A stretch of DNA of 64,000 nt from Malacoraja senta (GCA_038087875.1 CM075990.1:14324001-14388000), one strand, 5' to 3'. Shown: positions 2,158-36,100, counted from the first letter of the stretch. Numbers and translations: made by a program. Notes: generated by a model from the sequence alone, not told the origin.

Positions 2158-2890
2158 AACATGTTTCCTGCCTCTAGCGTGTCCAAGCCCTTAACAATCT
2201 TAAATGTTTCAATGAGATCCCCTCTCATCCATCTAAACTCCAGAGTGTACAAGCCCAGCTGCTCCATTCTCTCAGCATATGACAGTCCCGCCATCCCGGG
2301 AATTAACCTTGTAAACCTACGCTGCACTCCCTCAATAACAAGAATGTCCTTCCTCAAATTAGGGGACCAAAATTGCACACAATGCTCCAGGTGTGGTCTC
2401 ACTAGGGCTCTGTACAACTGCAGAAGGACCTCTTTGCTCCTATATTCGATTCCTCTTGTTATAAAGGCCAACATGCCATTCGCTTTCTTCACTGCCTGTT
2501 GTACCTACATGCTTACTTTCATAGACTGATGTACAAGGACCCCCAGATCACATTGTACTTCCCCATTACCCAACTTGACGCCACTTAGATAGTAATCTGC
2601 CTTCCTGTTTTTGCTACCAAAGTGGATAACCTCACATTTATCCGCATTAAACTTCATCTGTCCTCTCCCCGAACCTGTCCAAGTCACCTTGCATTCTCAT
2701 AGCATCCTCCTCACAGTTCACACTGCCACCCAGCTTTGTGTCATCTGCAAATTTCCTGTTACTTTGAATCCCTTCATCCAAATCATTGATGTATATTGTA
2801 AATAGCTGTGGTCCAGCACCGAGCCTTGCAGTACCCCACTAGTCACTGCCTGCCATTCTGAAAAGGACCCGTTAATCCCTACTTTGTTTC
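2158..2890 (-). mobile_element. CR1-clade LINE fragment, inverted relative to the copy at 1-2157
   Basis: Minus-strand [37 protein letters not shown] and KCEVIHFG. Confidence 0.93.
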
Positions 2891-3639
2891 CTGAGTGGTG
2901 TCAGAACAATTATCTCACTCTTCTGCCTTTGTTAGACAAAGGAGCTAATTGTTGCCTTCACCAACGCACTGACCGAACCTTCACAAATACTGCCCAAACC
3001 ACCATTGAATTGACCGACTAAACAGTAACAAAAACAGAGTAAAACAAACCATTAGTAAAAAGCTCGCTTCAGTTAAAAAACCCATCCCAAGTAAAAAGCC
3101 TGCAAGTTAAAAAAACACATCACAAGTAAAAACAAATGTAACTAATGAATAGAAACAAGTAAACAAAAGAAAGGCCTATTCCTCACTTTGTATTGCAGCT
3201 AGATAGATTAATTATGACTTTCTACCCAGCCTGAAGATCAAATAAATACTGGTCTGAATTACATTGAGATTAAGAAAAAAGAGAAAGTGAAGGAAAATGG
3301 TGAAGGTGTAAAAACGTGACAACAAGAAAGAACAGAGACCCTGTAGAAAAGAAATTAAAAAGAAAGGATTAAGAGATAGACCCTAAAGGGAAAAAAAGAT
3401 AAAGAGGAAAAAAAGAGAAAAACAAATACTTTGTGTATATATTTATAGAATGCCTTGTAGTAAATGCCTACTATGTTCTGTTGTGCTCAAGCAAAGCAAG
3501 AATTTCATTGTCCTACCAGGGACACATGACAATAAACTCACTTGACTTGACTTGACTTGGCAAATGGGATATACCAACTCTCCAGCTTTAATCCCCCTTT
3601 ACCTGACCTCAGTTTTTTTTTTTTTTTTTTTTTTTAAGT

Positions 3640-3978
3640 ACTTTTGCACCCTATACTTGTAATAATTCTATAAATGCAGACCACGTCAGGTGGAAGTGAT
3701 CTGGTTTACCTGCCAGGAGTCTTATCTCTTCTAGGTGTAATGTTTCAAACATATTTGAAATCCACATGTTTATAGTTGGTATTGGAGCGTTTTTCCAGAA
3801 TTTTAGGATTAACTTTTTTCCAGTTATTAACCCGTAATCTATTAATTTCTTTTGAAACACATTTAGTTCAGGACTATCTTCCGTTGTTCCGAAGATAATC
3901 CATTCTGCTTTTGGTATTAGTTTTATTTTAAATAATTTTGTAAACATTTCAAAAATTTCAAACAAGAAGTTATTGAGG
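3640..3978 (-). mobile_element. L1/Tx1-type LINE ORF2 C-terminal fragment
   Basis: IIFG...[33 protein letters not shown]; the same family occurs at 32560-33940. Confidence 0.8.
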
Positions 3979-3979
3979 G

Positions 3980-4445
3980 TAAGGACCAACTCCGCTAGGC
4001 GGAGGAGAATATCTATGGACGGGTATAGGTAGCTCCTCCGGTCGAGGAAGAACCGGAGGGCTTTGAGACCATCCTGGTGGGGGATGGAGGTGTAGAGTGA
4101 CTGGACGTCAATGGTGAAGATGAGGATGGGGGCCTAGAGAATGGAATGCACGGAGACAACGGAGAGTGTCTGAGGTGTCTTGAACATAGGTAGGGAGGGA
4201 TTTAACCAAGGGGGATAGGATGGAGTCAAGGTATGTGGAAATGATTCCGGTAGGGCATGAACAGGCAGAGACAATGTGCCTGCCAGGACAGTCAGGTTTG
4301 TGGATTTTGGGGAGAAGGTGAAATCGGGCCATGCGGGGCTGGGGAACGATGGGGTGAGGCGGTGGGGGGTGGGGGGGATTGGAGTGAGACAGGGTAGTGG
4401 AGAAGTTGAGGCGGTTGATGTCGCAATGGCAGTTTTGGATTAAAA
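3980..4445 (-). mobile_element. Penelope-like element RT fragment
   Basis: ARFHLLPKIHKPDCPGRHIVSACSCPT...LDSILSPLVKSLPTYVQDT followed (after a frameshift) by FTIDVQSLYTSIPH. Confidence 0.9.
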
Positions 4446-4599
4446 GTTCTAAAGCCGGAGGGCCAGGCCTATTCCTCACTTTGCATTGCAGCTAGATAGA
4501 TTAATTATGACTCTTTCTACCCAGCCTGAAGATCAAATACTGGTCTGAATTACATTTGCAGGGTTCGTAAGTAAGCAAATAGAGAAATAAGGCATCCAG

Positions 4600-5340
4600 A
4601 CAAAATGAAATGCAAATTGCAGCTCTTGCTGGTGCCTCTTTAAAGACACTCAGCAGCCCAACAATCGTTCATCCCAGGTTCAAGAACATCTTCCCATCAA
4701 ACATCAGTTTCCTGAACCACATTGCACCAGCAACAAATTTCAGAACCGAAAGCACATTTCTACTCACTTTTGCATTATGTCCATTATTTGGATCGTCTTC
4801 ACCAAAATAGCCGAAGCGCTCTCAATTAAACAGAATGTATCTGTCAACCACTTGGCTGTTAGATTTCAAAGAACCTCAACCTCCTCTATCTTCTCTGCTT
4901 CATGTTCCCGCACTTTTAAGGTCAAGCACATCTTAGGGCGACAGTTCTCTTTAACGAGTCTAATAACTCCTGCATGTCTTCCAACTCAACACAACCTACT
5001 TTCTGAGCCAAACTCAACCTTTTCCTCTGGTTTTACATAGACCATTACCAACCCTGAAACCTCTCAGTTCAGGCACTAGATGCAGGCACAGTTTTTATCA
5101 AACACCATTCACACACCAACTGTGCCCCATGCATCGCGAGCAAGTCTCTAATGTTAAAAGATTTCCAGAAATCTTTAACACTCATTTTACCATCACCAGT
5201 AGCCTTCATTACAGCATCAAATGTTTTGTTGAGATAATAAAAATTAAACATGCTAATCACACCTGGATCCATAAGAGGGATGTAGCATTCAGTAGAAGAT
5301 AAACTTGAATATTTCTGTTACTGCACTTTATGTTGTCACA
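4600..5340 (-). mobile_element. Degraded pogo/Tigger-like transposase fragment
   Basis: MDPGVISMFNFYYLNKTF...DFWKSFNIRD resembles the pogo QPMDQGVI..FK.YYL...FWK.FNI.D motif; extent approximate. Confidence 0.7.
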
Positions 5341-5747
5341 ATGCCATTACTAATAAATTATGACATGTTACCAAGTCTGAACTTCAAATCTTCATCTGAA
5401 CTACACTTGCACGTTTCTTAATTGATCATTACAAGTAGAGAAATAGAACATCCAGACATAATAAATACAAACAGCAGACTTAGGGAGTAAAATATTCAGC
5501 AGCTCTTACCAGACCTTTAGTAGTGCTGGATGAAGGAAGGTTGTAGATGTACTTCATCTTCTGGGACAGGGGACAATTCTCTCCATGGATGGATCATCTC
5601 CACAACCTGGCCAAGTTAAGCCCACTGGCCTTCAGTGAGTATGACATCTTCAGATAGATCTCGGATGACCTCCCTAAGGAGCACCTCGTGGGATTCCAGG
5701 CAGTGCGGGTTTTCCATTCAGATCCACAGTATGACCTACAATACAAT

Positions 5748-5820
5748 TGAGTGGTGTCAGAACAATGATCTCACTCTCTGCCTTTGTAAGACAAAGGAGC
5801 TAATTGTTGCCTTCACTAAA
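5748..5820 (+). mobile_element. Short Rex1/Babar-type LINE RT fragment (second copy at 2892-2962)
   Basis: EWCQNNDLTLCLCKTKELIVAF resembles the W..N.L.LN..KTKELIVDF motif. Confidence 0.6.
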
Positions 5821-7279
5821 GCACTGACCGATCCATCACAAATACTGCCCAAACCACCATTGAATTGACCGACAGGAAGTGCTAATACAACAGAGCTCTG
5901 GCCCATCCTTCTGTCCAGAGTGATCACCCATTTGTGGAAGTGGAAGGAGCAATTCGTTGGATTGCTGGAAGCACTGGATGTCACAGCACCAGGTGGGGAG
6001 CGATGAGACCTGGCGCTGCACTACTGTCAGAGCGATCTTGGAACTGCGGAGCTCCCTGTGGACATGCAGCTCCATGACTGGAGGCGGGTGCCCGGCCCGT
6101 CAATCTTGCAGCACCTGCCCCCTACGCTGATCGGACCTCGGGCTTCGTCCAATCAGCATGAACGGATTTTTGAGCGGGAAACCGAATCTGAGAAAGTTTC
6201 TGCTGTTGGCGAAGCCCGCAGCAAGTACAGCATGAGTGGACAACCCCTCATATGAACAACCTGCTCCAGTAAACAACCAGCCCCCCACCCACCCTGACTA
6301 AACAGTTACAAAAACACAGAGTAAAACAAACCATTCGTAAAAAGCTCGCTTCAATTTAAGAAACCCATCCCAAGTAAAAAATCTACAAGTTAAAAAAACA
6401 CACCTCAAGTAAAAACAAAAGTATCCAATGCGTAGAAACAAGAATAACAAGAGCAACCAACCACGTTTCTCCATTGATGTTGTCTCCATCTCCAGCTATT
6501 TCTGGTCTGTGATCTCTTGGCTTTTCCCGGAGATAATCTGCATCAGTTTTGCTGCTCTTGGTATTTCCTGGATGAATCTTTTCTTTCCATTTGGTATCTC
6601 TTTCACTTTCTTTTCGCCAGTATTGAGTCGCTGGTGGGGGTTCCCATCCCTGGCAAGGAGACTTCATTATGAGATATTCGCTGGTTATATATGGCACGCG
6701 TCCTCCTGTCAAAATTATCATCACAGCCATTGCAAAGAAGCGGCTTTTAGCAACTGAACAGACATTTGATCCATCGCTTATTTGCACAGGAATTCATCAT
6801 TACACTCAACAACACAAACACGATTCTTTAAGTGTTATTATACTCACCCTGGTAGTCGGCTTCAGGTGATCACTATCTCCTGCCAATGGGCTGAAAGGCT
6901 TATTCCTGCACCTTACCTCAGGTGGCTCTTTCAAGACCTACAGTTGGACCAGGCGGGATAAACTTGTAGACGCGCCAATGTCTTTGGTTATGATGGTGAC
7001 TCGCAGACTGAACAGTGCGCAGATTTGTGTCCTCACCAGTAAATAGTCCACCTCGACTAAAAAACACCTCGAGAAAAAAGAGTAAAAAAAGAGTTTAAAA
7101 AAAGCACGAATAAAATGCCCGCCTCGACTAAGCAAACCACAATCTCCAGTAAAGAGCTGGCTTTCACTAAAATTGACACAAGTAAAAAAATTACCATCAG
7201 CCATTGCAAAGAAGCAGCTTTTAGCTACTGAAGAGACATTTGATCCATCACCTATTGCCCAGGAATTCATCATAACACC

Positions 7280-8185
7280 GTTATACAAGAATTTTGCCTG
7301 AACAGTCTGCGACCCATAGCGCTATGTTTAAAGCCCAATGTGCTGTGGCCAGTAACGCGATGTTTAGAACCAAAGTGCTGCAGCTGATAGCTCTTTGTTT
7401 AAATTTCAGCGCGTTAAGCCAACAGCGCTGTTCAAACCTTTGAGCACCAAACTGGCAGTGCCGTGTATTACCTTTACGCACCGTCTGTATCGCTGTGTGA
7501 ATTGATTTGAGCGCCGTCTTTAGCGCTGTGTGTATGGATTTGTACACCAAGTCTGTAGCTCTGTGCATTGATTTGCGCACTAAGTCTGTAGCTCTGTGCA
7601 TTGATTTGCGCACCAAGTCTGTAGCTCCGTGTGTATTGATTTGCGCGCCAAGTCTGTAGCTCTGTGCATTGATTTGCTCACCAAGTCTGTAGCTCTGTGC
7701 ATTGATTTGCGCACCAAGTCTGTAGCTCTGTGTGTATTGATTTGCCCGTCAAGTCTTTAGCGCTGTGTGTATTGCTTTACATGCCAGTCTGCAGCTGATA
7801 GCGCTTTGTTCCCAAAGGAGGGAGGGGACGGGGCTTGCTGGGATGCAGTCCCCTGCCATTGGTTATAGTTTGAATATGGGAGAAGCTCTATTGTCCAGGC
7901 TTACCGGCAGTTATTTCAACAGCTGATTTCTTACCTGTATAAAGGCAGGCGCCAGGAAGCCATAAGTTAGTTCATGTACGAGAGGGGTTCACCAATGGGC
8001 TGAGTCGCGATCAGCGCCGGACGGAGGCATAGTGAGAGGTGTGCTGCTGTAAAACAGACCCGCGCATACCAGGACAAGTATTGTTTTTGTTCTCTCTTGC
8101 CAATAAATCTGATTTGTAAATAAACAGATGAGTGAGCCTTTTTCTGTTCTACTAGTCAGACCCTTGAACCCGTTCCCTTGTAACA
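7280..8185 (+). mobile_element. Solo LTR with 4-bp TSD
   Basis: Begins (T)GTTATACA and ends TGTAACA; CACC on both sides (7276-7279, 8186-8189); TATAAA 7938-7943; AATAAA 8102 and 8119. It interrupts a module that is contiguous in the sister copies. Confidence 0.8.
7478..7800. repeat. 33/35-bp minisatellite inside the solo LTR
   Basis: Tandem AAGTCTGTAGCTCTGTGCATTGATTTGCGCACC, roughly 8-9 copies with degenerate ends. Confidence 0.92.
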
Positions 8186-11100
8186 CACCTATCAACACAA
8201 ACACAATTCTCTAAGTGTTATCATACTCACCCTGTTTGTCAGCCTCAGCCAACGGGCTCAAAGGCTTATTCCTGCACCTTACCTTCGCTGGCTCTTTCAA
8301 AAGCTATGGTTGGACCAGGCGGATTAAGTAAATAGACGCGCCAATGTCTTCGGGTAAAATGGTGGCTCACGGCATGGACTGTGCGCAGATTCACCAGTAA
8401 AAGGTCCACCTCTTCTAAAAAACACCTTGAGATTTTAAAAAAAGCACACATCGAATTAAAAAACACAAGAGCGCAAGTAAAAAGCCCACCTCAATTAAGC
8501 AAACATCCATCTCCAATAAAATGCTGGGAAAATTCACAAGTAAACAGCCCGCCCTGACTTAAAAAGACACAACCCGAGGAAAAAAATGTTAAAACTCTGC
8601 TTCACACTTCAAATAAAAATCCCACCGAGATAAAAAAAACAAACATACCTCAAGTAAATACGAGTAAAAAGCCAGAGTTAAAAAGTTAGTTAAAAAGTTT
8701 TTTAAAAAATTAACTGGAGTAAAAAGCACATCGAGGTTAAAAAAAACATACTGCAGATTAAAGCGATTAAAAACCTGAGTAACCAATGTGTAACATGGGC
8801 GAGCACCCCCCCCCCCCCCCCTCTGATCTGTCCTCTGGCTTCGTTCAATAACCAGGAAAGGATTTGAGCGGGAAACCGAAGTGGAGAAAGCTTCCGCTGC
8901 GCTACATGAACAGCACGAATGGACAACCGACCCCTCATGTAAACAACCCCCCCCCCCCCCGCTAAACCATCGCGACTAAACAGTTACAAAACCACCTCGA
9001 ATAAAAACAACCAACTCGAGCAATAAAAAGTTGGCTTAGACTAAAAATCACAATTAAAATGCCCCCCCTCATGTAAATAACCTGCTCCAGTAAACCACCC
9101 CGACTGATCACCTACCCAGCCTAAACAAAACCACCACCCCGACCAAAGTTACAAACACCTCGAGTAAAACATCCAACGCCTAAAAAAAGAGTAAAAAGCT
9201 CAGCTCGAGTAAAAACACATCTCGAGTTAAAAACGCATGTCGAGTAAATAGAAACCACGAGTAAAAAGCTCGCCTCGACTCAAAACCCCACCTCGAGTTA
9301 AAGAAAGCACCACGAGTAAAATAAACTACGAGTAAAAAGCCTGCCTCGAGTAAATAATCACCTCATTAAGAAAGACTTCAAAAAACACATCGAGTTATAA
9401 AACACACCTGACCTCGAGTAAAATAACAATGTCCGCCTCGACTAAAAAGTACACTTGAGTAAAAATAAAAAAACTCGAGTTTAAAAGAGTAAAAAGCTCA
9501 CCTAGACCAAAACACCCATCTCGAGTAAAAAGCTGGCTTCGACTAAAAAACACACGAGTTAAAAAAAGGCCCAGTTAAAAACAAGAGTCACCAACGAGTA
9601 GACCAATGAATAAGAAGGACGTCCAACCTGGTTTCCCATTGATGTTGTCTCCATCTCCAGCTATCCTGGTCTGTGATGTCTTCTTGACTTTTCCCAGAGA
9701 TAAGCTGCATCAGTGTTGCTACTCTTGCTTTTTCCTGGATGGGTCTTTTCTTTCCATTTGGCGCCCCTTTCACTTTATTTTAGCCAGTATTTAGTCGCTG
9801 GTGGGGGTTCCCATCCCTGGCAAGGAGAGGCTTCATTATCGGATATTCGCTGGCTTTATGTGACGCTCCTTGCCCTCCTGTCAAAATTACCATCGTAGCC
9901 ATTGCAAAGAAAGAGTTTTTAGCAACTGAAGAGACATTTGATCCATCGCCTAATCGTGTAGGAATTCATCGTAACACCCATCAACAACACAACATTATTC
10001 TCTAAGTGTTATCACCCTGGTAGTCGGCCTCAGGTAATTACTATCTCCTGTCTGCGGGATCAAAGGCTTATTCCTGCACCTTACCTTCGATGACACTTTC
10101 AAGAGCAATGGTTGTACCAGGCGGGGTAAGCTTGTAGACGCGCCAATGTCTTCGGGTAAAACGGTGACTCGCGGCTTTGACGGAGCGCAGATTCACGTCC
10201 TCACCAGTACAAAAAAGTTCGCCACGACTAAAAAAAAGCAGAAAAAAATACCGATATTACAAAAAAAAGCACGAATATAAAGCCCTCCTCGACGATGTAA
10301 ACATCCATCTCCAATAAAAAGCAGAGTGCGACTAAAATTTACAAGTAAAAAGCCGGCCTCGACTATAAATCAGTTTTAAAAACTCGAGTTAAGAAAACAT
10401 ATCTTGGATTTTTTTTAAACGAGTAAAAGACCCGCCTAAACTAAAAAAAAACTGAACTCGAGTAAAAAGAACATCGATTTAAAAAATAATATATACCTCG
10501 AGTAAAAATAAGAGCAATCAACGCTGATCGGTCCTCGGGCTTCGTCCAATGAACACGAGGGGATTTTTGAGCGGGAACCCGAAGCGGAGAAAGTTTCCGA
10601 TGTCGGCGAAGTCCGCGCCCGCCACAAGTACAGCACTAGTGGACAACCCTTCATGTAAACAACCTGTCCCAGTAAACAACCTGCCCCGCCGCCTAAACAC
10701 CCACCAGACTCAACAACCACCCGACTCAAGTTACAAAAACTCCTCGAGGAGAAAGCACAGGTCGAGTAAAAACACACTAGTTAAAAACGCATGTCGAGTA
10801 AATAGAAATCACGAGTAAAAATCTCGCCTCGACTAAAAAACTATCACGACTAAAAAACCCACCTTGAGGTAAACAACACGAGTAAAATAAACTAGGAAAT
10901 AAAATAAACAAAGACTAAAAAAAATCACCTCGTTAAAAAAAACACTTGAGTTTAAAAAAAAACACGCTCCGAGTCACAAAGAACGAGTCAAATTCCCATC
11001 TTACTGAGTATAAAGCTGGCTTCGACAAAAAAAACACATCTTGAGGGGAAAAAAAATCACGTAAAAAAGCCGCCTCGACTAAAAATCACACCTCGAATAA

Positions 11101-13378
11101 AATTCTCACCGTGTTTAAAAAAACCCATCTCGAGTAAAAAGCCCGCCTAAAGTAAAACACTTAACTGGAATAAAAGGCACATGGAGTTAAAAATAAAACA
11201 TACCACGAAAAAACAAGAGTAACCAACGAGGTACATGGGCTAGCAATGGGAGCTGGTGACCACTATGTTTCTTCACCAGAGCGGCTCTGTGACTGAAGGC
11301 AGGAGCCAGACCCGTCCGCCTTTTAAACACTCGTTACACCCAATTAGCAAGAACAGTTGTTTGAGCGGGAAACCTAGGCGGAGAAAGTTTCCGAAGCCGG
11401 CGCGCGTCGCAAGTACAGCTCGAGTGGACAACCCTCTTATGTAAACAACCTGCTCCAGTAAACAACCAGCCCGCCTAAACACCCACCCCGACTAAACAAC
11501 CACCGCCCAGTTACAAAAACACCTTGAGTAAAACAACTAACGAGTGAAAAAAACGAGCAAAGGGCACAGCTCGGGTTAAACCCCTATCTCGTTAAAAGAA
11601 ACCATCAATAAAATGCCCGCCTTGACTAAAAAAATACATCTCGAGTAAAAAGCCCGTCTCGAGTAAAAAACACACGTTAAAAGCATACCGAGTTAAAATA
11701 CCTCGAGCAAAAGGAAACCACGAGTAGAAAGCCCACCTCGACTAAAAAAAACCTCGAGAAAAAACACGCCCAGTTAAATATCACACCTCGAGTAAAAATC
11801 CCACCGAGTTATATCCACTACAAAAAAACGAGTAAAAAGCCTGCCTCGACTAAAAAAAAGTTTAAACAAAAAACACACCTCGGGAAGAAAAAGAGTAAAA
11901 AGCCCGCCTCGACTAAAATTATACTTCTAGTAAAAAAATAACAGGAGTAAAAAGCCCACCTCGATTAAAAACACACCTCAGCTAAAAATCACACTTCGAG
12001 TAAAAAAGCAGAGAACAACTGAAACCTCGATCAAAAGAAACGAGTTAAAAAGCCCGCCTCAAGTAAAAAAACTAATCTCGAGTAAAAAAAAGCACCTCGA
12101 ATAAAATATCCCACGAGTAAAAAACTAACCTCGAGTAACAAATCCCACCGAATTACAAAATGTACCTGGAGTATATAAAAACGAGTAAAAAGCCCGCCTC
12201 AAGTAAAAATCAAACCTCGAGTAAAAAAAACTCACCGTTGCAAAATATACCTCGAGTAAAAAAAACGAATAAAAAGCCCGCCTCAACTAAAAAACACACC
12301 TCGAGTAAAAACTCCCACACGTTTAAAAAAAAAACTCACATCGACTATAAAGCTACCTCGAGTAAAGAAAGACACATCGAGTAATCAAACACCTCGATTA
12401 AAAAATACTTGAATTTAAAAAAAAACGTCGAGTAAAATACATTAAATCTTGTCATTATTATTCAGAAATAAAATGTGCGCTTTTTAGAATGTTTCGTTCT
12501 CAGGAGCCTATGTTGTCAACATATCTCAGTGCTAATGGGCTTTGTAAATTGAACATATTGAATTGATGACACAGTGTTATGTATTCATGTAACATATTTC
12601 CTGTATTATGTGTTTTATGCATAACATCTTTTTAAAAATTTAATAAACATATCTTACAGATTTGCACTGCACAGACGCCCCCCCCCCCTCAGCCTAATTC
12701 ACGCTTACTGACCAAGGTGCCGATCTAACCTAGTCTCTCGTGTAACTTGTATTTTGCCCACATCTCTCTAAACCTTTCCAATCTAAGAACACACCCAAAA
12801 GCCTTTTGAAAGTTGTAATTGTACCCACCTCTATCACTTCCTCTGGCATTTCATTCCATGTACCCACCGCCTCCGATGAGGCAAACATATTGTCCCCCAG
12901 ATCCATTTAATTCTTTCCTCTTTTACCTCAACCAGTCCCCTCTAGATTTTAAACCTCCTTGCCCTTGTAAAAAGCCCGCTGGATCAGATCATCACCTTTA
13001 ATGCACAGCGTCTGCCCCCTCGCCAATCGCAGCTTACACTTGAGTTGGCTGAGGTGCGGATGATACAGTTGTCTTCCCTTCTTTAACAACAACATTTAAA
13101 ATACATTTGGACAGGCGGATAGATAGAAAAGCTTTGAAGGGTCTGGGACAAATGAAACTCACTTAGAAAAGGCATCTTGGTCGTTAAGGTCGAATTGGGC
13201 TAGAGACTTTCCTACCTATGTCTGACTCTGTAACTGTTTACCAAGAAGGTCCAGCGAGGGGGTTGGTTGTTGTTGTCACGGCACCGCACTCTGGGGGAAA
13301 GGACTGCAACCCAGAATCGTACTACCACAGGCTACTGAGGGACGGATCCTATGTAACAGCATGTGAAAAATACTCGGA

Positions 13379-13590
13379 GGTAGACACAAAATGCTGAAGT
13401 AACTCAGCGGGACAGGCAGCATCTCTGGAGAGAAGGGATGGGTGACGTTTCGGGTCAGTCTGAAAAAGGGTATCGACCCGAAACGTCACCCATTCCTTCT
13501 CTCCAGAGCTGCTGCCTGTCCCGCCGAGTTACTCCAGCATTTTGTGTCTGCCTTCGATTTAAACCAGCATCTGCTGTTCTTTCCTACACA
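13379..13590. mobile_element. Penelope-derived terminal repeat in palindromic arrangement
   Basis: 78-bp inverted arms 13379-13456 and 13475-13552. The same family recurs at ~14500, 15100, 16910, 17320, 30500, 42890, 46080, 49030 and 49430. Confidence 0.75.
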
Positions 13591-14411
13591 TATGAGAAAT
13601 ACTCTATTGATACTTAAAGATGAAACATTAGTGGAGTATTGCTACTATACAACATTGTTTCCACTCGCCTAGATATTGAAAGGTAAGCAAAACATAACAT
13701 TATAACTACAATTAGTCTGGAGGGCACGTTATCGATGTTACAATCAAAGAGGTTACAATAGTGTCGCCATAATTATGTGTTCGAAAATACATCAGACTGA
13801 GAGATTGATAGGGTGTGAAGGGTCCTAACTCAAAATATCGCTTGTCCATTCCCTCCACAAATGCTGCTGACGCATTGTTCCTCCAGCACTTTGTGCAGAG
13901 TTGATTTGTACTAGTTCAGCTGACAGAAGCCAACATTGTAATGGAATCTATGAGCAATATAACTGAACGATCTCCTGATGCAGAATCTTAGCCCAAAACA
14001 TCGACTACCCTTTTGTCTCCACAGATGCTGCCCGCTGACGTTCCTAGAACAACGTTTGCTTTGCTCCAGTTTCCAGCATCTGCAGTCTTTGAATTATCCT
14101 CTCAGTAGTTCAGTCTCGCAGGTATCCTTTTCTTATTTCCAAGCTTTGTTTTGTCGTCGAACGAAACAATATTAGGCAAATTATACATCGTCAAGCCTAT
14201 TGCCATCTGTACAAAGACGGATAGGTACATATGATGAAAATCTTATTTGAATGTTTTTTTTTAAAATAATCCTGAAGGGCAATAATAGTAAGAAAAGCCG
14301 ATTTGTATTTCTCATAATGGGCTGCTGAACAGTGTTTTGTGCATGTTCACCCTTCTGCTTCAGATTTTGCAATTGTTCTATTTTTTAAAAAGTAAACCCC
14401 TGCATGATTGA

Positions 14412-15410
14412 GTAAACCAGCATCTGCAGTTCCTTCCTTTGGTCAAAACATGAACGAAATGACGAAGAAACATCAATAGGAACTGTGGATATTGGTTTAC
14501 ACCGAAGATAGGCACAAAATGCTGGAGTAACTCAGCGGAACAGACAGCAACGGGTCTCGACCCGAAACGTCACCCATTCCTTCTCTCCAGAGATGCTGCG
14601 TGTCCCGTTGAGTTGGTCCAGCATTTTTGTGCAGTTCCAGCATCTGCAGTTCCTTCCTTTGCTCAAAACACGAACGAAATAATTAAGAAAAATCAGTAGG
14701 AACCGCAGATGTTGGTTTACGATTAAAAAAAAATACAAATGCACACATACAGACACCGAAACTCATTGTGAGTCCCCGCTACAAGAGATACACAATACTG
14801 GAGTAACTGGCAGGATCTCTGGATGGAAGGAATGGATGACGTTTCGGGTCGAGACGTGGTCGGGTGTAAACCAGCATCTGCAGTTCCTTCTTTTGGTCAA
14901 AACATGAACAAAATGATAAATAAACATCAATAGGAACTGCAGATGCTGGTTGAACCAACTCATTGAAACAATGAGTTTCAATGTACGCATGTGTGCATTG
15001 TCTGAACTTTGTGTCTTTAAAAAAAAAATCGTAAACCAACATCTGCAGTTTCTTCCTCTGGTCAAAACATCGAAATGATGGAGAAACATCAATACGGACT
15101 ACAGATGGTAGACACAAAACGCTGGGGTAACTCGTCAGGCCAGGCAGCATCTCTGGAGAGACGTAATGGAATGGGTGCTGTTTCGGGTCGAGACCGAGAC
15201 CCTTCTTCAGACCAAAGATCTAGTATCTTTGCTTCAGACTCATGGGGTCTCGACCAGAAACGTTACCCATCCCTTCTCTCCAGAGGTGCTGCCTGTCCCG
15301 CTGAGTTACTCCAGCTTGTTGTGTGTGTGTCTTCGGTTTAAACCAGCATCTGCAGCTCCTATAGTGTAGGAAGGAACTGCAGATGCTGGTTTAAACCGAA
15401 GACATACACA
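14412..15410. repeat. Cluster of hairpin units built from Penelope-derived termini
   Basis: AAACCAGCATCTGCAGTTCCT ... AGGAACTGCAGATGCTGGTT inverted pairs repeated five times. Confidence 0.8.
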
Positions 15411-15489
15411 CATTAAATTGTAACAATGTACAAAGTGCAGACAAAGTACAAAAACAAAAGATACAAAGTGAAGACAATGCACACGTCGA

Positions 15490-15681
15490 AATATTTAAGA
15501 TGGGATTTAAGAGGGAGTTAGATGTGGCCCTTGTGGCTAAAGGGATCAGGGGGTATGGAGAGAAGGCAGGGATGGGATACTGAGTTAGATGATCAGCCAT
15601 TATCATATCAAATTGCGGTGCAGGCTCGAAGGGCCGAATGGCCTACTCCTGCACCTATTTTCTATGTTTCTATGTTTCTAT
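15490..15681 (+). mobile_element. CR1 3' fragment immediately upstream of the CHUK promoter
   Basis: CR1 3'UTR ending in (CTATGTTT)n. Confidence 0.88.
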
Positions 15682-15699
15682 GAAACACATTGTTTCACT

Positions 15700-15845
15700 G
15701 AAGGGTGAACGCGCAGGCGCAGTGGTTCGGACTCCAACTCCCAGCATGCCTGGGCCGGGCGATGACGCAGGCGCGGGAGACGGTTGTGGACGTGATGCGG
15801 TGACGGCGGCAGTGGCGGTAGTAGGCCCCCCCCCCCCCCCTCAAG
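15700..15845 (+). promoter_or_regulatory. CHUK: CpG-island promoter and probable non-coding first exon of CHUK
   Basis: CpG-dense stretch with an NRF1-like GCGCAGGCGCA (15711-15721) and a ZNF143/SBS-like ACTCCAACTCCCAGCATGCC (15731-15750). Donor AAG|GTAGGT at 15845/15846. The ATG exon at 18007 begins with an acceptor (tttcag), which implies an upstream exon. Confidence 0.75.
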
Positions 15846-15870
15846 GTAGGTAGGCCCGGCGGCGCGGCTC

Positions 15871-16025
15871 TCCCACACCCCCACCCCCACCCCCACCCCG
15901 TCCCCACCCCGTCCCCCACCCCGTCCCCGTCCCCACCCCGTCCCCACCCCGTCCCCACCCCCACCCCCACCCCGTCCCCACCCCGTCCCCACCCCGTCCC
16001 CGTCCCCGTCCCCGTCCCCGTCCCT
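15871..16025. repeat. C-rich simple repeat (CCCCAC / CCCCGT)n
   Basis: More than 20 C4 tracts on the + strand, so G4 tracts on the template strand. Confidence 0.9.
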
Positions 16026-16104
16026 CTCTCCTCCGCCCCAAGGCCGCACCGGGACCCCGCCGGCACTCACCTTCCTGCCCCCTCCCACACACCACCCGCG
16101 GCTC

Positions 16105-16812
16105 CAGGCCGATCCGCCAGGGTCCCGGGTTCAATCCCAGCCTGGGGGTGCTGTCTGTGTGGAGTTTGCATGTCCCGGCTTCAATCCCAGCCTGGGGGTG
16201 CTGTCTGTGTGGAGTTTGCATGTCCCGGCTTCAATCCCAGCCCGGGGGTGCTGTCTGTGTGGAGTTTGCATGTCCTCCTTCAGGCCGATCCGCCAGGGTC
16301 CCGGGTTCAATCCCAGCCTGGGGGTGCTGTCTGTGTGGAGTTTGCATGTCCTCCTTCAGGCCGATCCGCCAGGGTCCCGGGTTCAATCCCAGCCTGGGGG
16401 TGCTGTCTGTGAGGAGTTTACACGTCCCGGGTTCAATCCCAGCCCGGGGGTGCTGTCTGTGTGGAGTTTGCATGTCCTCCTTCAGGCCGATCCGCCAGGG
16501 TCCCGGGTTCAATCCCAGCCTGGGGGTGCTGTCTGTGAGGAGTTTACATGTCCCGGGTTCAATCCCAGCCCGGGGGACACTGTCTGTGTGGAGTTTACAT
16601 GTCCCGGCTTCAATCCCAGCCCGGGGGTGCTGTCTGTGTGGAGTTTGCATGTCCTCCTTCAGGCCGCAGGGTCCCGGGTTCAATCCCAGCCTGGGGGTGC
16701 TGTCTGTGTGGAGTTTGCATGTCCTCCTTCAGGCCGATCCGCCAGGGTCCCGGGTTCAATCCCAGCACAGGGCGCTGTCTGTGTGGAGTTTGATGTCCTC
16801 CTTCAGGCCGGT
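16105..16812 (+). repeat. Minisatellite derived from a tRNA-SINE head (50-51-bp and 76-bp units)
   Basis: 11 copies of TTCAATCCCAGC...GTGCTGTCTGTGTGGAGTTTGCATGT, matching the B-box region of the SINE at 21727. Confidence 0.9.
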
Positions 16813-18027
16813 CCCTCAGTAACCCTGACTTTCCCATTCTGTCCCTCCCCCATCCTAATTCTCTAACTAGTTCAACTGTCCCCCTGGTTAATTTAACTGA
16901 TTGTTTCAGAAGGAACTGCAGATGCTGGTTGAAACCGAAGATAGACACAAAAAGCTGGAGTAACTCAGCGGGACAGACAGCATCTCTGGAGGGAAGGAAT
17001 GGGTGACGTTTCGAGTCAAGATCTCGAACTTAAACGTCTTTAGTGATTGTATGCCTGGTTGTCACCTTCCCCATAGCGAACCATGAACAATTCTACATTT
17101 CCTTGATCATCATCTGTTTTGATCTCTGTGTGTGGAGTTTGCATGTCCTCCTTCAGGCTTATCCGTCAGTGTTCCAGGTTCAATCCCAGCACTGTCCTGA
17201 TTAATTTTACTGTTCGCATGCTTCGTTGATACCTTCCCTTCAGCCACTAATGAACCATTCTACATTTCCTTGATCACCAACCCATCCATATCTCTAGTTT
17301 CCCTCTCCCCTGACTCTCAGTCGGAAGAAGGGTCTTGACCTGAAGTGTCACCCATTCCTTCTCTCCAGAGATGCTGCCTGTCCTGCTGAGTTTCTCCAGC
17401 ATTTAGTGTCTGTCTTCCTGAACCAATCACCTCTTTCACGCCCTATTCCTGGTGCTGCTTCCACCAGCTCTTAACTCTGTTATTGTGCTTTGTATCAGTA
17501 AATAAATGGTGTGCAAAACAGCAGATACTTTTTAAAGGCAGAAGATAGACACAAAAAGCTAGAGTAACTCAACATGTCAGAGAGCATCTCTGGAAAAATA
17601 TGTTAATTATTCAGGGCAGAATACCTCATCTCCACCTATGCCTGTTTCCTCCTATGCTTTTACTCAGTAGCCAAACATTTTTCCATAAGTGAACTCAAGA
17701 TCTTTCTCTTACTTTTCCTTGAAATGAATATTCACTGCATAGGGAAAACCAACAACACTTGTGGGCTATTTGAATAGCACAATTCTGTGGATCATGATTT
17801 TATTTCCCCCCTGACTTGAGTTAAAGTTCCACTGCTATTCTCACGCAGCCTTAATCTTTGCCATTTACTGTTAGAAATGCAGTTGAGAAAGAAAGGTTGA
17901 AGTAGAAACTGTATTGTGCAGTGTTTCAATTTATTTTGGTTGTTCTATTTGTGATTTAAATTTCTTATATGGCTTCGATGATAAGTTAGTATTTTTGTAA
18001 TTTCAGTGTTGAAGATTCTGACCGAGA

Positions 18028-30100: not shown

Positions 30101-33100
30101 AAGACATTTGTGTGGAATGAAGAATATTCAGGGAAACTGGTCAGGGTGTGTAGGGATCTGACGGCTGTTACCTAATCTCTTCCTTCAGCAATGAGGAGTC
30201 CATCCTGACGGAACCTGATCCCAAAGTAAAACTTGATCGATCAATAATTATATTTTTTCAAGAAAATAGAATCATTCCTTTCAAATTCTCAGAATATCCA
30301 AAATCACTTTGCATTTTGACTTTACAGTACTTTAATGGTTGCAAAGTAAACTTCAGATGCTGGAAATCTGAAATAATGGAGAATGCTGGAAGGTATTCTG
30401 TAGATTAGGGTGTACCTGACAGAGAAAAACAATGACATTTTTGGTCGATACCCTTTCATAATAATTAGGAAAAGTTAAGGACAGAATAAGTTGTAGAGAG
30501 GTGTAAGAAGGAACTGCAGATGCTGGTTTAATCCGAAGATAGACACAAAATGCTGGAGTAACTCAGCAGGACAGCCAGCATCTCTGGAGAGAAGGAATGG
30601 GTGACGTTTCGGGTCGAGACCCTTCTTCAGACTGGTCGTTTCAGAGAGGGGTGTAGTGGTGGAAGAAACAAGGGAACGTCTGATAGGGTGAATACAATGA
30701 AAGATAATATGGAAGATAGACACAGAATGCTGTAGTAACTCAGCGGGACAGGCATCATCTCTGGAGAGAAGGAATGGGTGTCGTTTCAGTTTGAGACCCT
30801 TCATACTATGGAGCAAATACTGTATGGTTGCCAGTTGAAAGAGTGAAGGCCAAGTCAAAGGATATTTTTAAGGCAGAGATAGATAGATTCTTGATTAGTA
30901 GGGGTGTCGGGATTGTTGATTAGTATGGGTGTCAGGCCGAATGGCCTAATTCTACTATCACGTATGAATTTATGAACTTACTCACAGCTGAATTTGTTTT
31001 TGCATTGAACAACTTTTCCCTTAATTCCACTCACTTCTACCAAGTCAAAGTCATAGTTACGAGCATGTAGATCTGAACTATACATGCACAGATCCTTCTT
31101 TCTGTCTGAACTGAACCAGTTCCTTTCTTCCTTTTTTCAGTACATTGCAATAATTGTGTGTCCTGTTCCCACACATAACTCAAATGTATCATCACTTCTA
31201 CTGCTGATTTCCGACAGGTTTTCATTTGAAATCTTGGTGAAATAGTCTTGTGAGCAATGTTCATTACAAACCTACAGACCACTAATCTACTCGGTATACA
31301 TCTTTCCATTTTGCCTCTTGTAAGGGTTCCTTCTAAGTATGGCCAGTTTTCCTGGTTCCATTGTATTCTTATCGTGACACTTCCACATTAGTACTTCTGA
31401 GGTGTTTTTCTTTTGCCTTAAAAGGGGCTTTTGCTGTACCATAGTTGACCGGCTCTTAATAATTACTTACATTTGTGCTTTCACTCCCTCTTCTTCCCAC
31501 CAGAGCAAGGATAGGATTCTCCTGTCCTTCCACGACTCCAGACTCCAAATTCACTAAATCATCCTTCATACAGTGGCTTGCAAAAGTATTCATACCCCTT
31601 GAACTTTTCCACATTTTGTCAAGTTACAACCACAAACGTAAATGTATTTTATTGGGATTTTATGTGATAGACCAACACAAAGTGGCGCATAATTGTGAAG
31701 TGGAAGGAAAATGATACATGGTTTTCAAATTTTTTTACAAATAAAAAACTGAAAAGTGTCGCGTGCAAAGGTATTCAGCCCCCTTTACTCTGATACCCCT
31801 AAATAAATTCCAGTGCAACCAATTGCCTTCAGAAGTCACCTAATTAGTAAATTGAGTCCACTTGTGTGTAATCTAATCTCAGTATAAATACAGTTGTTCT
31901 GTGAAGGCCTCGGAGGTTTGTTAGAGAACATTAGTGAACAAACAGCATCATGAAGCCCAAGGTACACACCAGACAGGTCAGGGATAAAGTTGTGGAGAAG
32001 TTTAAAGCAGGGTTAGGTTATAAAAAAATATCCCAAGCTTTGAACATCTCACGGAGCACTGTTCAATCCATCATCCGAAAATGGAAAGAGTATGGCACAA
32101 CTGCAAACCTACCAAGACATGGCTGTCCACCTAAACTGACAGGCCGGGCAAGGAGGGCATTGATCAGAGAAGCAGCCAATGTAACTGGAGGAGCTGCAGA
32201 GATCCACAGCTCAGGTGGGAGAATCTGTCCACAGGACAACTATTAGTCGTGCACTCCACAAATCGGGCCTTTATGGAAGAGTGGCAAGAAGAAAGCCATT
32301 GTTGAAAAAAAGCCATAAGAAGCCCCGTTTGCAGTTTGCCACAAGCCATGTGGGGGACACAGCAAACATGTGGAGGAAGGTGCTCTGGTCAGATGAGACC
32401 AAAATTGAAGTTTTTGGCCTAAATGCAAAACGCTATGTGTGGCGGAAACCTAACACTGCACATCACCCTGAACACACCATCCCCACTGTGAAACATGGTG
32501 GCAGCATCATGCTGTGGGGATGCTTTTCTTCAGCAGGGACAGGGAAGCTGGTCAGAGTTTTTTATTATTTTTTTATTTTTTATTTTATTAGAAGTATTGT
32601 ACATTACAGTAATCTGCAATAACGTAAGTTTATACTTTTCTTGTACCACTTCTTATTTTAAACTTTAATAAGAGAAAAGGATAGAAAGAGTTAGTAAAGA
32701 TAGTAAGTGAGTGATTGAAAGAGTGGTCCAGGAACACCCATATGGACCTAAACCACAAGAAATAGTTAAAAATAAAAAATAAAAAAAAGGAAAAAGAGAA
32801 AAACCAAAAGGAGGAAAAAGAAAAAAGAAAACATAAGGTAAGATAGGACAATATGAAAGGGATGTACCTACTTCATATCTTTACTCACCCCTCGCCAGGT
32901 CCTGAAACCATTTATTATCAATATTTTGTTGCACCCTATGTTTGTAATAAGTCGATAAATGGAGACCAAATCTTTTGGAATTGGTCTGGTTTACCTGCCA
33001 AGAGGAATCTCATATCTTCTAGGTGTAACAATTCCGACATATTAGAAATCCACATTTTTGTCGTTGGCGTGGGAGCGTTTTTCCAAAATTTCAGTGTACG

Positions 33101-36100
33101 TTTTTTTGCTGTTATTGCCATAATTAAGAAAACTCCTTTGAAACGAAGTCAGCTCCAAACTTGCTTCTATTGTTCCAAAAATAATCAGTTTTATTTTAAA
33201 TAATTTAGTGAAAATTTCAAAAATTTAATTCCAAGATTTTTGGATTTTTATACAAAAAACAAAAGAATGTGCTATAGTTGCTTCTTGGGTTAGGCATTTA
33301 TCACAGATAGAAGAGGTATTTGGGTAAAATTTACTTAATTTAACTTTCAAATAGTATAATCTATGTAACATTTTAAATTGAATTAGAGTATGTCTTACGT
33401 TAATCAAGCATTTATGCACATATAACAGGTGTTTATCCCAACTCTCTCGAGATTTTTATAGCTAGTTCCTGTTCCCATTCTCTTCTAATCCCATCAGATG
33501 ATGGAATTTCTATATTTAAAATGGAATTATACAGGTATGATATTAAATTAGCTGATTCCGCTTTTATATTCATTATCTCATCTAATAGGTCAGGAGACAT
33601 ATTTTGATATTCTCATGTATATTTTTTCAAATAGTCACGTATTTGAAAGTATTTAAAATATTGATTACAACTCAAGTTGTATTTAAGTTGTAGTTGGTGA
33701 ATTGTTAAGAAACTTCCATTATCATACATATCTCCAAACGTTTTAATTCCTACTCTTTATCTATCATAGGTTTAAACGAAGGGTTATTCATTATAGGTGA
33801 GAGAAGTGATAGATTTCTTAATTTTAAAGTTAATTTTATTTGTTTCCAAATTCTAATTGTACTATGAATAATTGAATTTTTACTGTATATTGTATTCTTC
33901 ATTTTTGTTGGTGAGAGAAGGATCGCTCCTATGTTAAAAGGGGAAGCTGGTCAGAGTTGATGGGAAGATGGATGGAGCCAAATACAGGGCAATCTTGGAA
34001 GAAAACCTGTTAGAGTCTGCAAAAGACTTGAGACTGGGGCGGAGATTCACCTTCCAGCAGGACAACGACCCTAAACATACAGCCAGAGCTACAATGGAAT
34101 GGTTTAGATCAAAGCATATTCATGTGTTAGAATGGCCCAGTCAAAGTCCAGACCTAAATCCAATTGAGAATCTCTGGCAAGACTTGAAAATTGCTGTTCA
34201 CAGATGCTCTCCATCCAATCTGACTGAGCTTGAGCTATTTTGCAAAGAAGAATGGGCAAAAATTTCAGTCTCTAGATGTGCAAAGCTGGTAGAGACATAC
34301 CCCAAAAGACTTGCAGCTGTAATTGCAGCGAAAGGTGGTTCTACAAAGTATTGACTCAGGGGGGCTGAATACTTTTGCACGCGACACTTTTCAGTTTTTT
34401 ATTTGTAAAAAAATTTGAAAACCTTGTATCATTTTCCTTCCACTTCACAATTATGCACCACTTTGTGTTGGTCTATCACATAAAATCCCAATAAAATACA
34501 TTTACGTTTGTGGTTGTAACGTGACAAAATGTGGAAAGGTTCAAGGGGTATGAAAACTTTTGCAAGCCACTGTAATTACCACCACTGTGATGGCACCACT
34601 AGACATCTCCTCTCTACTTCACCTCTCCTTTCAGAACTATTCCCTTCACAAATACCAGTTCAATCGTTCAACTCTGTTAAATCCCGTTCATCTATCCACG
34701 ATATGAAATACCTACTGTTTACCTCCTACAATGCTCTAAGACCTTAAAAACCTTACAAGTGGAGCAGCAATTCACTTGTCCTTTTTTCATTTATTGCCTC
34801 AGTTTCAGTGCCCTGAAATGGTCTCTATATTGCTTGGACTAAAGAAGTCTGAAGAAGGATCCCATCCCAATACCTTGCCTGTTTATGTTCTCCAGAGATG
34901 CTGCCTGACATGCTGATTTCCAGCACTTTGTGTATTTGCTAAATGCAGATTGAGGAACTACTTGGCAGAAACTCCTGGTACTCAAGTGACCTGCTTCCAG
35001 TCTCCTGTGATTTAATTTCCCATCCCACTCTGCTGACTATCCTTGGCCTCTTACACGGTTCCAATGATACCCACCAGTAGATCGGCTAATAGCATGTATT
35101 CTTTTAGGTATGTTACAATCCTCAGAATTTAACATTGAACTCAATAATTCTGATGAAAGTTCATTACTTTGTAATGTTAACTTGCTTTTTTTTCATGAGA
35201 CGATTGATCTTCTGAGTATTTCTGGAAAACAGACTGGTTAATGCCTCATGAACGACCAACTCTGACGGTAGCAAAGGGCTAGGTTTTCTATCATGAACCT
35301 AACGATGTTTCTAGCTCTTACTAACCCACTGTTGGCATGATGGTTGTCACTGAGCTTTTGAATATTTGCCTGTCGTCTTTGTGTTTTAAATTCAACACAA
35401 AATATTATTGGAAGTTTTTTGTAGAAAAATAATGTAGTGCCTCAAATTTAGTAACACCTTGAAAACAATATTTGCTTTAGAGTGCCCTCTTGTGGTTAAT
35501 TCCATACAATTCAAGTATGGCATGAATTTCCTTATACAATTTTCTACTTTTCACTTGGCAGGTTTATATTTGCAGCTTAAATAGGAAAATCACAAAGTGA
35601 CAAGTGCAGAGGCCTGAAGCTCTTGACCCAACAAAGGGGCAAGAAGCCAGTTATGGTTTAACTAGCGATCCATTTCACCAATGGTAAAACAGTTTAAAGT
35701 AGACTGGATACATTTCTGTTAAGAGAAGTGTATGGGATTATTAGAATTAATTTCAAAAAAATCTGAAAGTGTTGTTTCATCTTTCTCACAGTTTGTTCAT
35801 ATATTAAATATGACTTCTGCCCGGGTTCATTCCTTTTTGATTAAACCTGATGAGAGCCTGCATTCTCTTCAAATGCGAATCGAAGCTGAAACAGCAATTG
35901 CTGCTGCAAACCAGGAGTTGCTTGTGGAAACTGGGATTTCTTTGGATCCTCGAAAGCCTGCCAATCAATGTGTGCCAGATGTAGTAAGTATTAATCTTTA
36001 TTATCTTTATAAAAATATAGACTTTTTGCCCATGTGTTAATGAAGCTGTATATGACTTGATGATTATTGATGCTGTTAATCAAAAAGCTACAAATTAATT

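Follow-up and report, generated by a model that had tools for sequence, protein, structure and literature searches.

A composite minisatellite-bearing tandem array beside CHUK in Malacoraja senta, probably a decaying low-copy duplication

Results

Setting of the array

The window analysed here, that is, the whole stretch of 64,000 nt from Malacoraja senta (GCA_038087875.1, CM075990.1:14324001-14388000), contains CHUK on the plus strand, whose promoter region at about 15700-16100 is rich in GC and whose kinase exons begin at about 18010. Upstream of the gene lies a composite tandem array, surrounded by repeats that we take to be CR1-like LINEs and elements of SINE and MITE type, similar in appearance to the repeats of cartilaginous fishes. 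Two CR1-like LINE copies (1120-1844 and 2158-2891) are placed tail to tail, so that an inverted repeat of 750 nt at 77% results. At 3600-4440 the minus strand contains disrupted frames like those of a reverse transcriptase, presumably of a Penelope-type element, with a very high depth in the short-read run X1. A minus-strand fragment at about 4660-5320, which we assume to be part of a Tigger-like transposase (searches gave no confirmation), is flanked within 4465-5510 by a directly repeated 190-nt module, whose two copies are diverged and of which a third, partial copy is found at 3172-3265. In the interval from the array to the CHUK promoter, short inverted-repeat elements form a cluster (13374-13557 and 14412-15412). 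Directly behind this promoter and a CCCCA/CCCGT repeat, a tRNA-SINE-like head is amplified in tandem (16105-16810; periods of 50, 76 and 126 nt, 90-98% matches) and contains eight B-box matches (GGTTCAATCCC), and a CHUK intron holds a presumably Tc1-like transposase in pieces (31938-34351).

Contigs of run X1 (55% of sampled words), which possibly represents the source sample of the window assembly, were compared with positions 2700-13000 at 80% likeness; 8 of 41,774 pieces were listed.

Architecture of the array

The array and the pieces related to it comprise the following features, where P is a promoter-like module, A and A' are A-rich tracts, and strand is given where assigned.

2892-3265, plus strand: rearranged partial duplicate made of 5748-5873 (94.5%), A tract 1 (87%) and 4465-4556 (92.7%)
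5345-5646: module I-E, left of the array, apparently of the same low-copy family; matched by a 578-nt run X1 contig
6066-6119: upstream piece U/u; 78% match between 6066-6101 and 11281-11316 (score 46, shuffle maximum 43, 0 of 300)
6120-6290, plus strand: P1, with what we take to be a CCAAT box 25 nt before an E2F-type site (GCGGGAAA)
6290-6456, plus strand: A tract 1, an 18-nt minisatellite
6457-6710: X1 module, 88.5% to X3
6711-6805: Y1, 83-91% to Y2 and Y3
6806-7045: Z1, with a candidate minus-strand exon at about 7055-6917 (end AG/GTAAGG), predicted from motifs only
7046-7186, plus strand: A' tract 1, shortened by deletion and joined to Y2 at the microhomology AAAATTAC
7187-7279: Y2, from self-BLAST and pairwise identity
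7280-8185, plus strand: solo LTR-like insertion, from its ends, target duplication, signals and depth
8189-8400: Z2, with a candidate minus-strand exon at about 8414-8283
8401-8805, plus strand: A' tract 2, with up to 8 variant run X1 contigs at 8487-8608
8820-10515, plus strand: complete unit of P2 (8820-8955), A (to 9622), X3 (9623-9882), Y3 (9883-9977), Z3 (9981-10212) and A' (to 10515)
about 10226-10085, minus strand: Z3 candidate exon, from splice motifs
10521-11245, plus strand: P3 (10521-10690) and a hybrid tract with A-like start and A'-like end; X-Y-Z lost
11246-11329: spacer u, which probably linked A' to P in the ancestral unit; one run X1 contig joins 8800 to 11250
11330-12440, plus strand: P4 (11330-11476), followed by the longest A tract, of about 950 nt, with which the array ends
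16061-16075, minus strand: consensus splice donor AAG/GTGAGT, facing the array from the GC-rich CHUK promoter region

By self-BLAST, alignment and profile search, four copies of P, two of X, three of Y and three of Z were recovered, all in a single orientation with A-rich tracts between them, in the order P1-A-X1-Y1-Z1-A'(cut)-Y2-[LTR]-Z2-A'-P2-A-X3-Y3-Z3-A'-P3-A/A'-u-P4-A. Module pairs are 77-91% identical, with local scores of 77-314 against maxima of 22-34 in 200 shuffles each, which confirms the claim of a preliminary description that a real tandem array with diverged copies is present. The regular P-A-X-Y-Z-A architecture and the period of about 1.7 kb given there apply to part of the array: the complete order P-A-X-Y-Z-A' is found in one unit only (about 8820-10515) and four further units are partial, and P2 and P3 are 1703 nt apart, whereas for the remaining neighbouring P modules the distance is 2694 and 794 nt. 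Homology extends to the left of 6120, with 6066-6101 matching 11281-11316. A supposed further copy at 2892-3170 contains the tract and its flanking DNA, but lacks P, X, Y and Z.

The A-rich tracts are a minisatellite, as had been proposed, in which the most frequent monomer length is 18 nt (23 monomers, next to 9 of 17 nt and 6 of 19 nt) and tract lengths range from 150 to about 950 nt. Their core CTCGA[GC]TA is present at 26 places in the array and absent from the other 57.7 kb of the window. The ratio of observed to expected CpG is 1.2-1.95 in the right-hand tracts, compared to 0.38-0.46 in CR1 and in CHUK introns, a retention compatible both with recent expansion and with an unmethylated, active region. 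Strong folding z-scores of the tracts stem from CTCGAG palindromes, which pair with one another at low energy.

The LTR insertion into one copy was correctly recognised earlier. It spans 7280-8185, is flanked by a CACC target duplication on both sides, and has the ends GTTATACAAG...CTTGTAACA, i.e. the usual TG without its first T; TATAAA is found at 7938, AATAAA at 8102 and 8119, and an internal 33-35-nt tandem repeat at 7473-7778. The summed depth of run X1, which is not a measure of copy number, amounts to 2,333-17,300 in LTR bins versus 34-174 in the other bins of the array, and reaches millions in LINEs. The insertion presumably postdates the duplication of the units, one of which received the LTR.

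Conserved motifs

Two modules contain stretches that are identical in all copies. The invariant 12-nt run in P (four of four copies; column-permutation p 0.006) includes the E2F-type site, which is preceded at 25 nt by CCAAT in three of the four; across the window the E2F-type 8-mer is not enriched (5 occurrences vs 3.2 expected). In Z a 25-nt run over a splice donor is invariant in three of three copies (p 0.0003, or 0.043 without CpG and gap columns), three alignments having been tested for these invariant-run values. On the minus strand this 25-mer matches a consensus splice donor, which would end a candidate exon of 130-145 nt.

Coding and RNA searches

No Pfam family was found in the six read-through frames of 4440-12601, and word-seeded protein searches of array frames gave no match. 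For 5510-7045, which covers Z, Y, X and E, one minus-strand frame of the six was compared with 1.84 billion representatives and had no match, the best E value in PDB for the six frames of 5400-7201 was 0.55, and the first matches of the Atlas comparison, 0.82 and 0.86, remained below lead level. Transposase, reverse transcriptase, integrase and viral coding sequences were likewise not detected in array frames, blanks that weigh little because the same searches missed the fragment at 5069-5314 that we regard as Tigger-like. A codon-level test revealed no synonymous excess in any frame of X, Y or Z, and 5 of the 25 gap entries between Z-A' copies are multiples of three, whereas most are not. Rfam returned nothing at the gathering score and two weak matches (E 0.76 and 2.4), Y and Z contain no conserved long hairpin, and the B box of tRNA-derived SINEs, with 10 matches in the window, has none in the array, which holds no tRNA. 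Exact array DNA patterns were absent from metagenome contigs and from viral contigs.

Several specific candidates were rejected: a miRNA hairpin around the invariant Z run (no conserved hairpin), a C/D snoRNA in Y (a minus-strand D box in one of three Y copies), and E as an ancient homologue of X (67 and 185 of 300 shuffles scored equal or higher). The idea that X-Y-Z is coding DNA derived from a Tigger, a likeness we had assumed, received no support from the search of 1.84 billion representatives.

The preliminary description recognised no known LINE, SINE or DNA-transposon family in the array, and the absence of a match to a known family holds for the libraries searched (Pfam, Rfam, PDB and protein representatives), within which the array is an uncatalogued low-copy repeat family. 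A source of small RNAs, which had been suggested, is supported by neither Rfam nor folding, and an endogenous virus or mobile element is likewise unsupported, given six frames devoid of a coding match, the lack of terminal repeats and the low depth outside the LTR.

Discussion

A low-copy family

Among the listed pieces of run X1, contigs that differ from the window by 0-3 letters lie over 6100-6345, 9801-10642, 10912-11341 and 11690-12550 at a depth of 11-27, and therefore the array is no echo of the assembly, in agreement with what had been stated before; the 77-91% identity of the copies and the crossing of module borders by near-identical contigs point the same way. The run also includes diverged relatives. 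A 412-nt contig on 9801-10213 differs from the window by 49 letters and 14 gaps, compared to 66 and 15 for copy 1 of the window, and the 578-nt contig matches 5345-5646 with 21 other letters and 7 gaps before it enters Y at 6725. Because of these relatives and of the low depth outside the LTR, the array unit appears to represent a low-copy family with diverged members elsewhere in the genome, unlike the adjoining mobile elements. Low-copy segmental duplications that undergo repeat-mediated rearrangement are known for module mosaics, low-copy relatives, and junctions in repeats and microhomologies, and the array resembles them in its mosaic of modules, its low-copy relatives elsewhere and its repeat and microhomology junctions.

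Alternative explanations

That an assembly artefact created the array could be argued from the fact that none of the 8 listed pieces (of 41,774) spans it as a whole and from the possible identity of run X1 with the source sample. Copies that are 77-91% identical instead of nearly 100%, an LTR with target duplication and near-identical contigs across module borders make this exceedingly improbable. A transposon origin, in which the unit would be the internal portion of a rolling-circle or DNA transposon that is non-autonomous, carries a minisatellite and became arrayed in tandem, would account for the composite make-up, the internal minisatellite and the relatives elsewhere in the genome; Helitrons often carry minisatellites and form such arrays. 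However, the terminal inverted repeats and target duplication of a DNA transposon or MITE are missing (the best pairs are 25 nt at 76% or shorter), the right end has no CTAG (the nearest are at 11927 and 12730), and the depth is low relative to true mobile elements in the same run X1 comparison, and we consider this origin quite unlikely. The units might also be pseudogenes of a lineage-specific gene family, with P as the former promoter and either the tract as coding sequence or E, X-Y and Z as former exons; in the tract version, the 18-nt repeat would have encoded a basic S/K/P-rich protein (SSKKPA or RVKSPP per monomer). The mode of 18 in monomer length (23 monomers, against 9 of 17 nt and 6 of 19 nt) is in line with this version, 9 of 19 changed codons between P1 and P3 are synonymous in one plus frame, and four of six listed E differences fall on third codon positions (by hand, with 12 of the contig's 21 differences listed). 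Yet the P1/P3 signal is absent from the other P pairs, second positions of the monomer vary more than third positions (entropy 1.0 vs 0.88), and every copy has stops and frameshifts, without a conserved ATG or any protein relative found, so that we regard a former gene family as very doubtful. As regards the earlier proposals of a decayed gene family or a regulatory locus, splice-like and E2F/CCAAT-like motifs are indeed present, but no codon-level selection was detected. As a separate observation, 5513-5635 in module E is also readable, by hand, as a plus-strand exon with an acceptor at 5512, GTGAGT at 5636 and one in-frame stop; its phase would fit an open frame across X-Y, and the match of the related contig ends 10 nt beyond the donor at 5636.

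The conserved run in Z leads to a different alternative: a spliced lncRNA might start on the strand opposite to CHUK, within the promoter region of that gene, use the donor at 16070 and take up the same 130-145-nt exon from each Z, in a Dxz4-like manner. In all three Z copies a T-rich AG acceptor and an AG/GTAAGG donor, the latter at 6916, 8282 and 10084, are found on the minus strand, where the array has 5 donors compared to 0.7 in shuffles (reached in 0 of 100) and none on the plus strand; four of the six perfect minus-strand donors of the window fall between 7934 and 16070, and the excerpts of PMC3491370 on mouse Dxz4 provide a precedent. These donors, however, are not independent, since all but one in the LTR are duplicates of a single site, and composition predicts acceptors in T-rich tracts. 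The scarcity of minus-strand poly(A) signals is not significant (1 vs 3.2; 15 of 100 shuffles were as low), and the invariant Z run has a weak likeness to the 3' tail of CR1 (E 0.003-0.07) and may be a LINE remnant. Nor is there a CTCF-like match in the array: the CTCF consensus, with one mismatch allowed, has two matches in the window and none in the array. We judge such an antisense RNA to be unlikely, though worth keeping in mind. If it were produced, the locus might even represent an independently arisen Dxz4-type design of cartilaginous fishes, in which a transcript from the CHUK promoter would meet E2F/CCAAT promoters that fire in the opposite direction from each unit, and the number of units and the length of the minisatellite would tune transcription beside the IKK-alpha gene; from motifs and layout this appears decidedly improbable. 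The minus-strand donor at 16070 could also belong to exon 1 of a head-to-head gene left of the window, independently of the array.

Origin of the array

We favour, as the probable explanation, a real low-copy tandem duplication with a unit of roughly 1.7 kb (u-P-A-X-Y-Z-A') that has no intact reading frame and decays without a specific function; a macrosatellite-like layout under neutral decay is the best reading of the array. P may retain some promoter activity, but the bulk of the array probably has no specific activity. The retention of motifs across copies above expectation in P and Z speaks against decay.

At its start, the tract that follows P3 resembles an A tract (score 56 to an A start, compared to 20-28 to A' starts), whereas its end is of the A' type (75 and 84 against A' ends, compared to 37 and 47 against A ends), and the simplest reading is therefore a crossover between A and A' that deleted X-Y-Z. 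The first A' tract passes into Y2 through a common AAAATTAC, an 8-nt microhomology, and the two parts of the duplicate at 2892 are joined at a short common GAC, which indicates deletions at microhomologies. The contig that connects 8800 with 11250, one of the relatives from elsewhere in the genome, suggests u-P-A-X-Y-Z-A' as the ancestral unit. While these junctions are observed, the recombination events are what we infer from them. The unit would have derived from a small family of duplicated segments, and crossover or repair between misaligned A and A' tracts would have added units and deleted X-Y-Z from one. In this way the array may have grown to about five units and then been pruned by unequal recombination between the 18-nt minisatellite tracts, with slippage continually altering tract length over a range of 165 to about 950 nt and the unit copies drifting without selection at the protein level.

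Comparison with known tandem arrays

According to the excerpts of PMC3491370, the monomers of mouse Dxz4 measure 3.8-5.7 kb, differ markedly in sequence and contain an internal VNTR, and a transcript that originates outside the array is spliced in every monomer to one and the same 163-nt exon. The array beside CHUK is similar, as far as these excerpts describe Dxz4, in being small and in having an internal variable repeat, monomers that vary in size as well as in sequence, a piece derived from an LTR and possibly one exon per monomer. It differs in its units of about 1.7 kb, which are mostly incomplete and without a CTCF-like match, and in its neighbour, CHUK instead of Pls3; splicing has been demonstrated for Dxz4 and is predicted here. 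The likeness concerns the layout, and no sequence homology is claimed. Macrosatellites in general, as characterised in the excerpts of PMC5687341, have units of several kb in several to hundreds of copies. Like the examples given there (DXZ4, D4Z4, RNU2, TAF11-like), the array consists of kb-size units arranged head to tail, in which short repeats and promoter-like sequence are embedded. Their several to hundreds of units are nearly identical and often yield a known gene or RNA, whereas the array has about five units of 77-91% identity with internal deletions, its 1.7-kb unit is smaller than the 'several kb' of that source, and no product was found. In layout the array comes nearest to small, heterogeneous arrays of macrosatellite type. 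We do not classify it as a macrosatellite or as a Dxz4 member, because its monomers are not nearly identical and no CTCF-like match occurs in it. In the literature searched we found no description of the locus or of its family, and the term CHUK is absent from the main text of PMC10015161; supplements with repeat tables could bear on this novelty.

Significance

As a decaying duplication, the array would provide a clean, small example of how a minisatellite causes kb-size units to be gained and lost. A low-copy repeat family that is uncatalogued, in a poorly annotated group of vertebrates, is of modest interest in itself. The antisense spliced RNA, if true, would be a non-mammalian lncRNA with one exon per tandem unit, located beside a gene of the NF-kB pathway.
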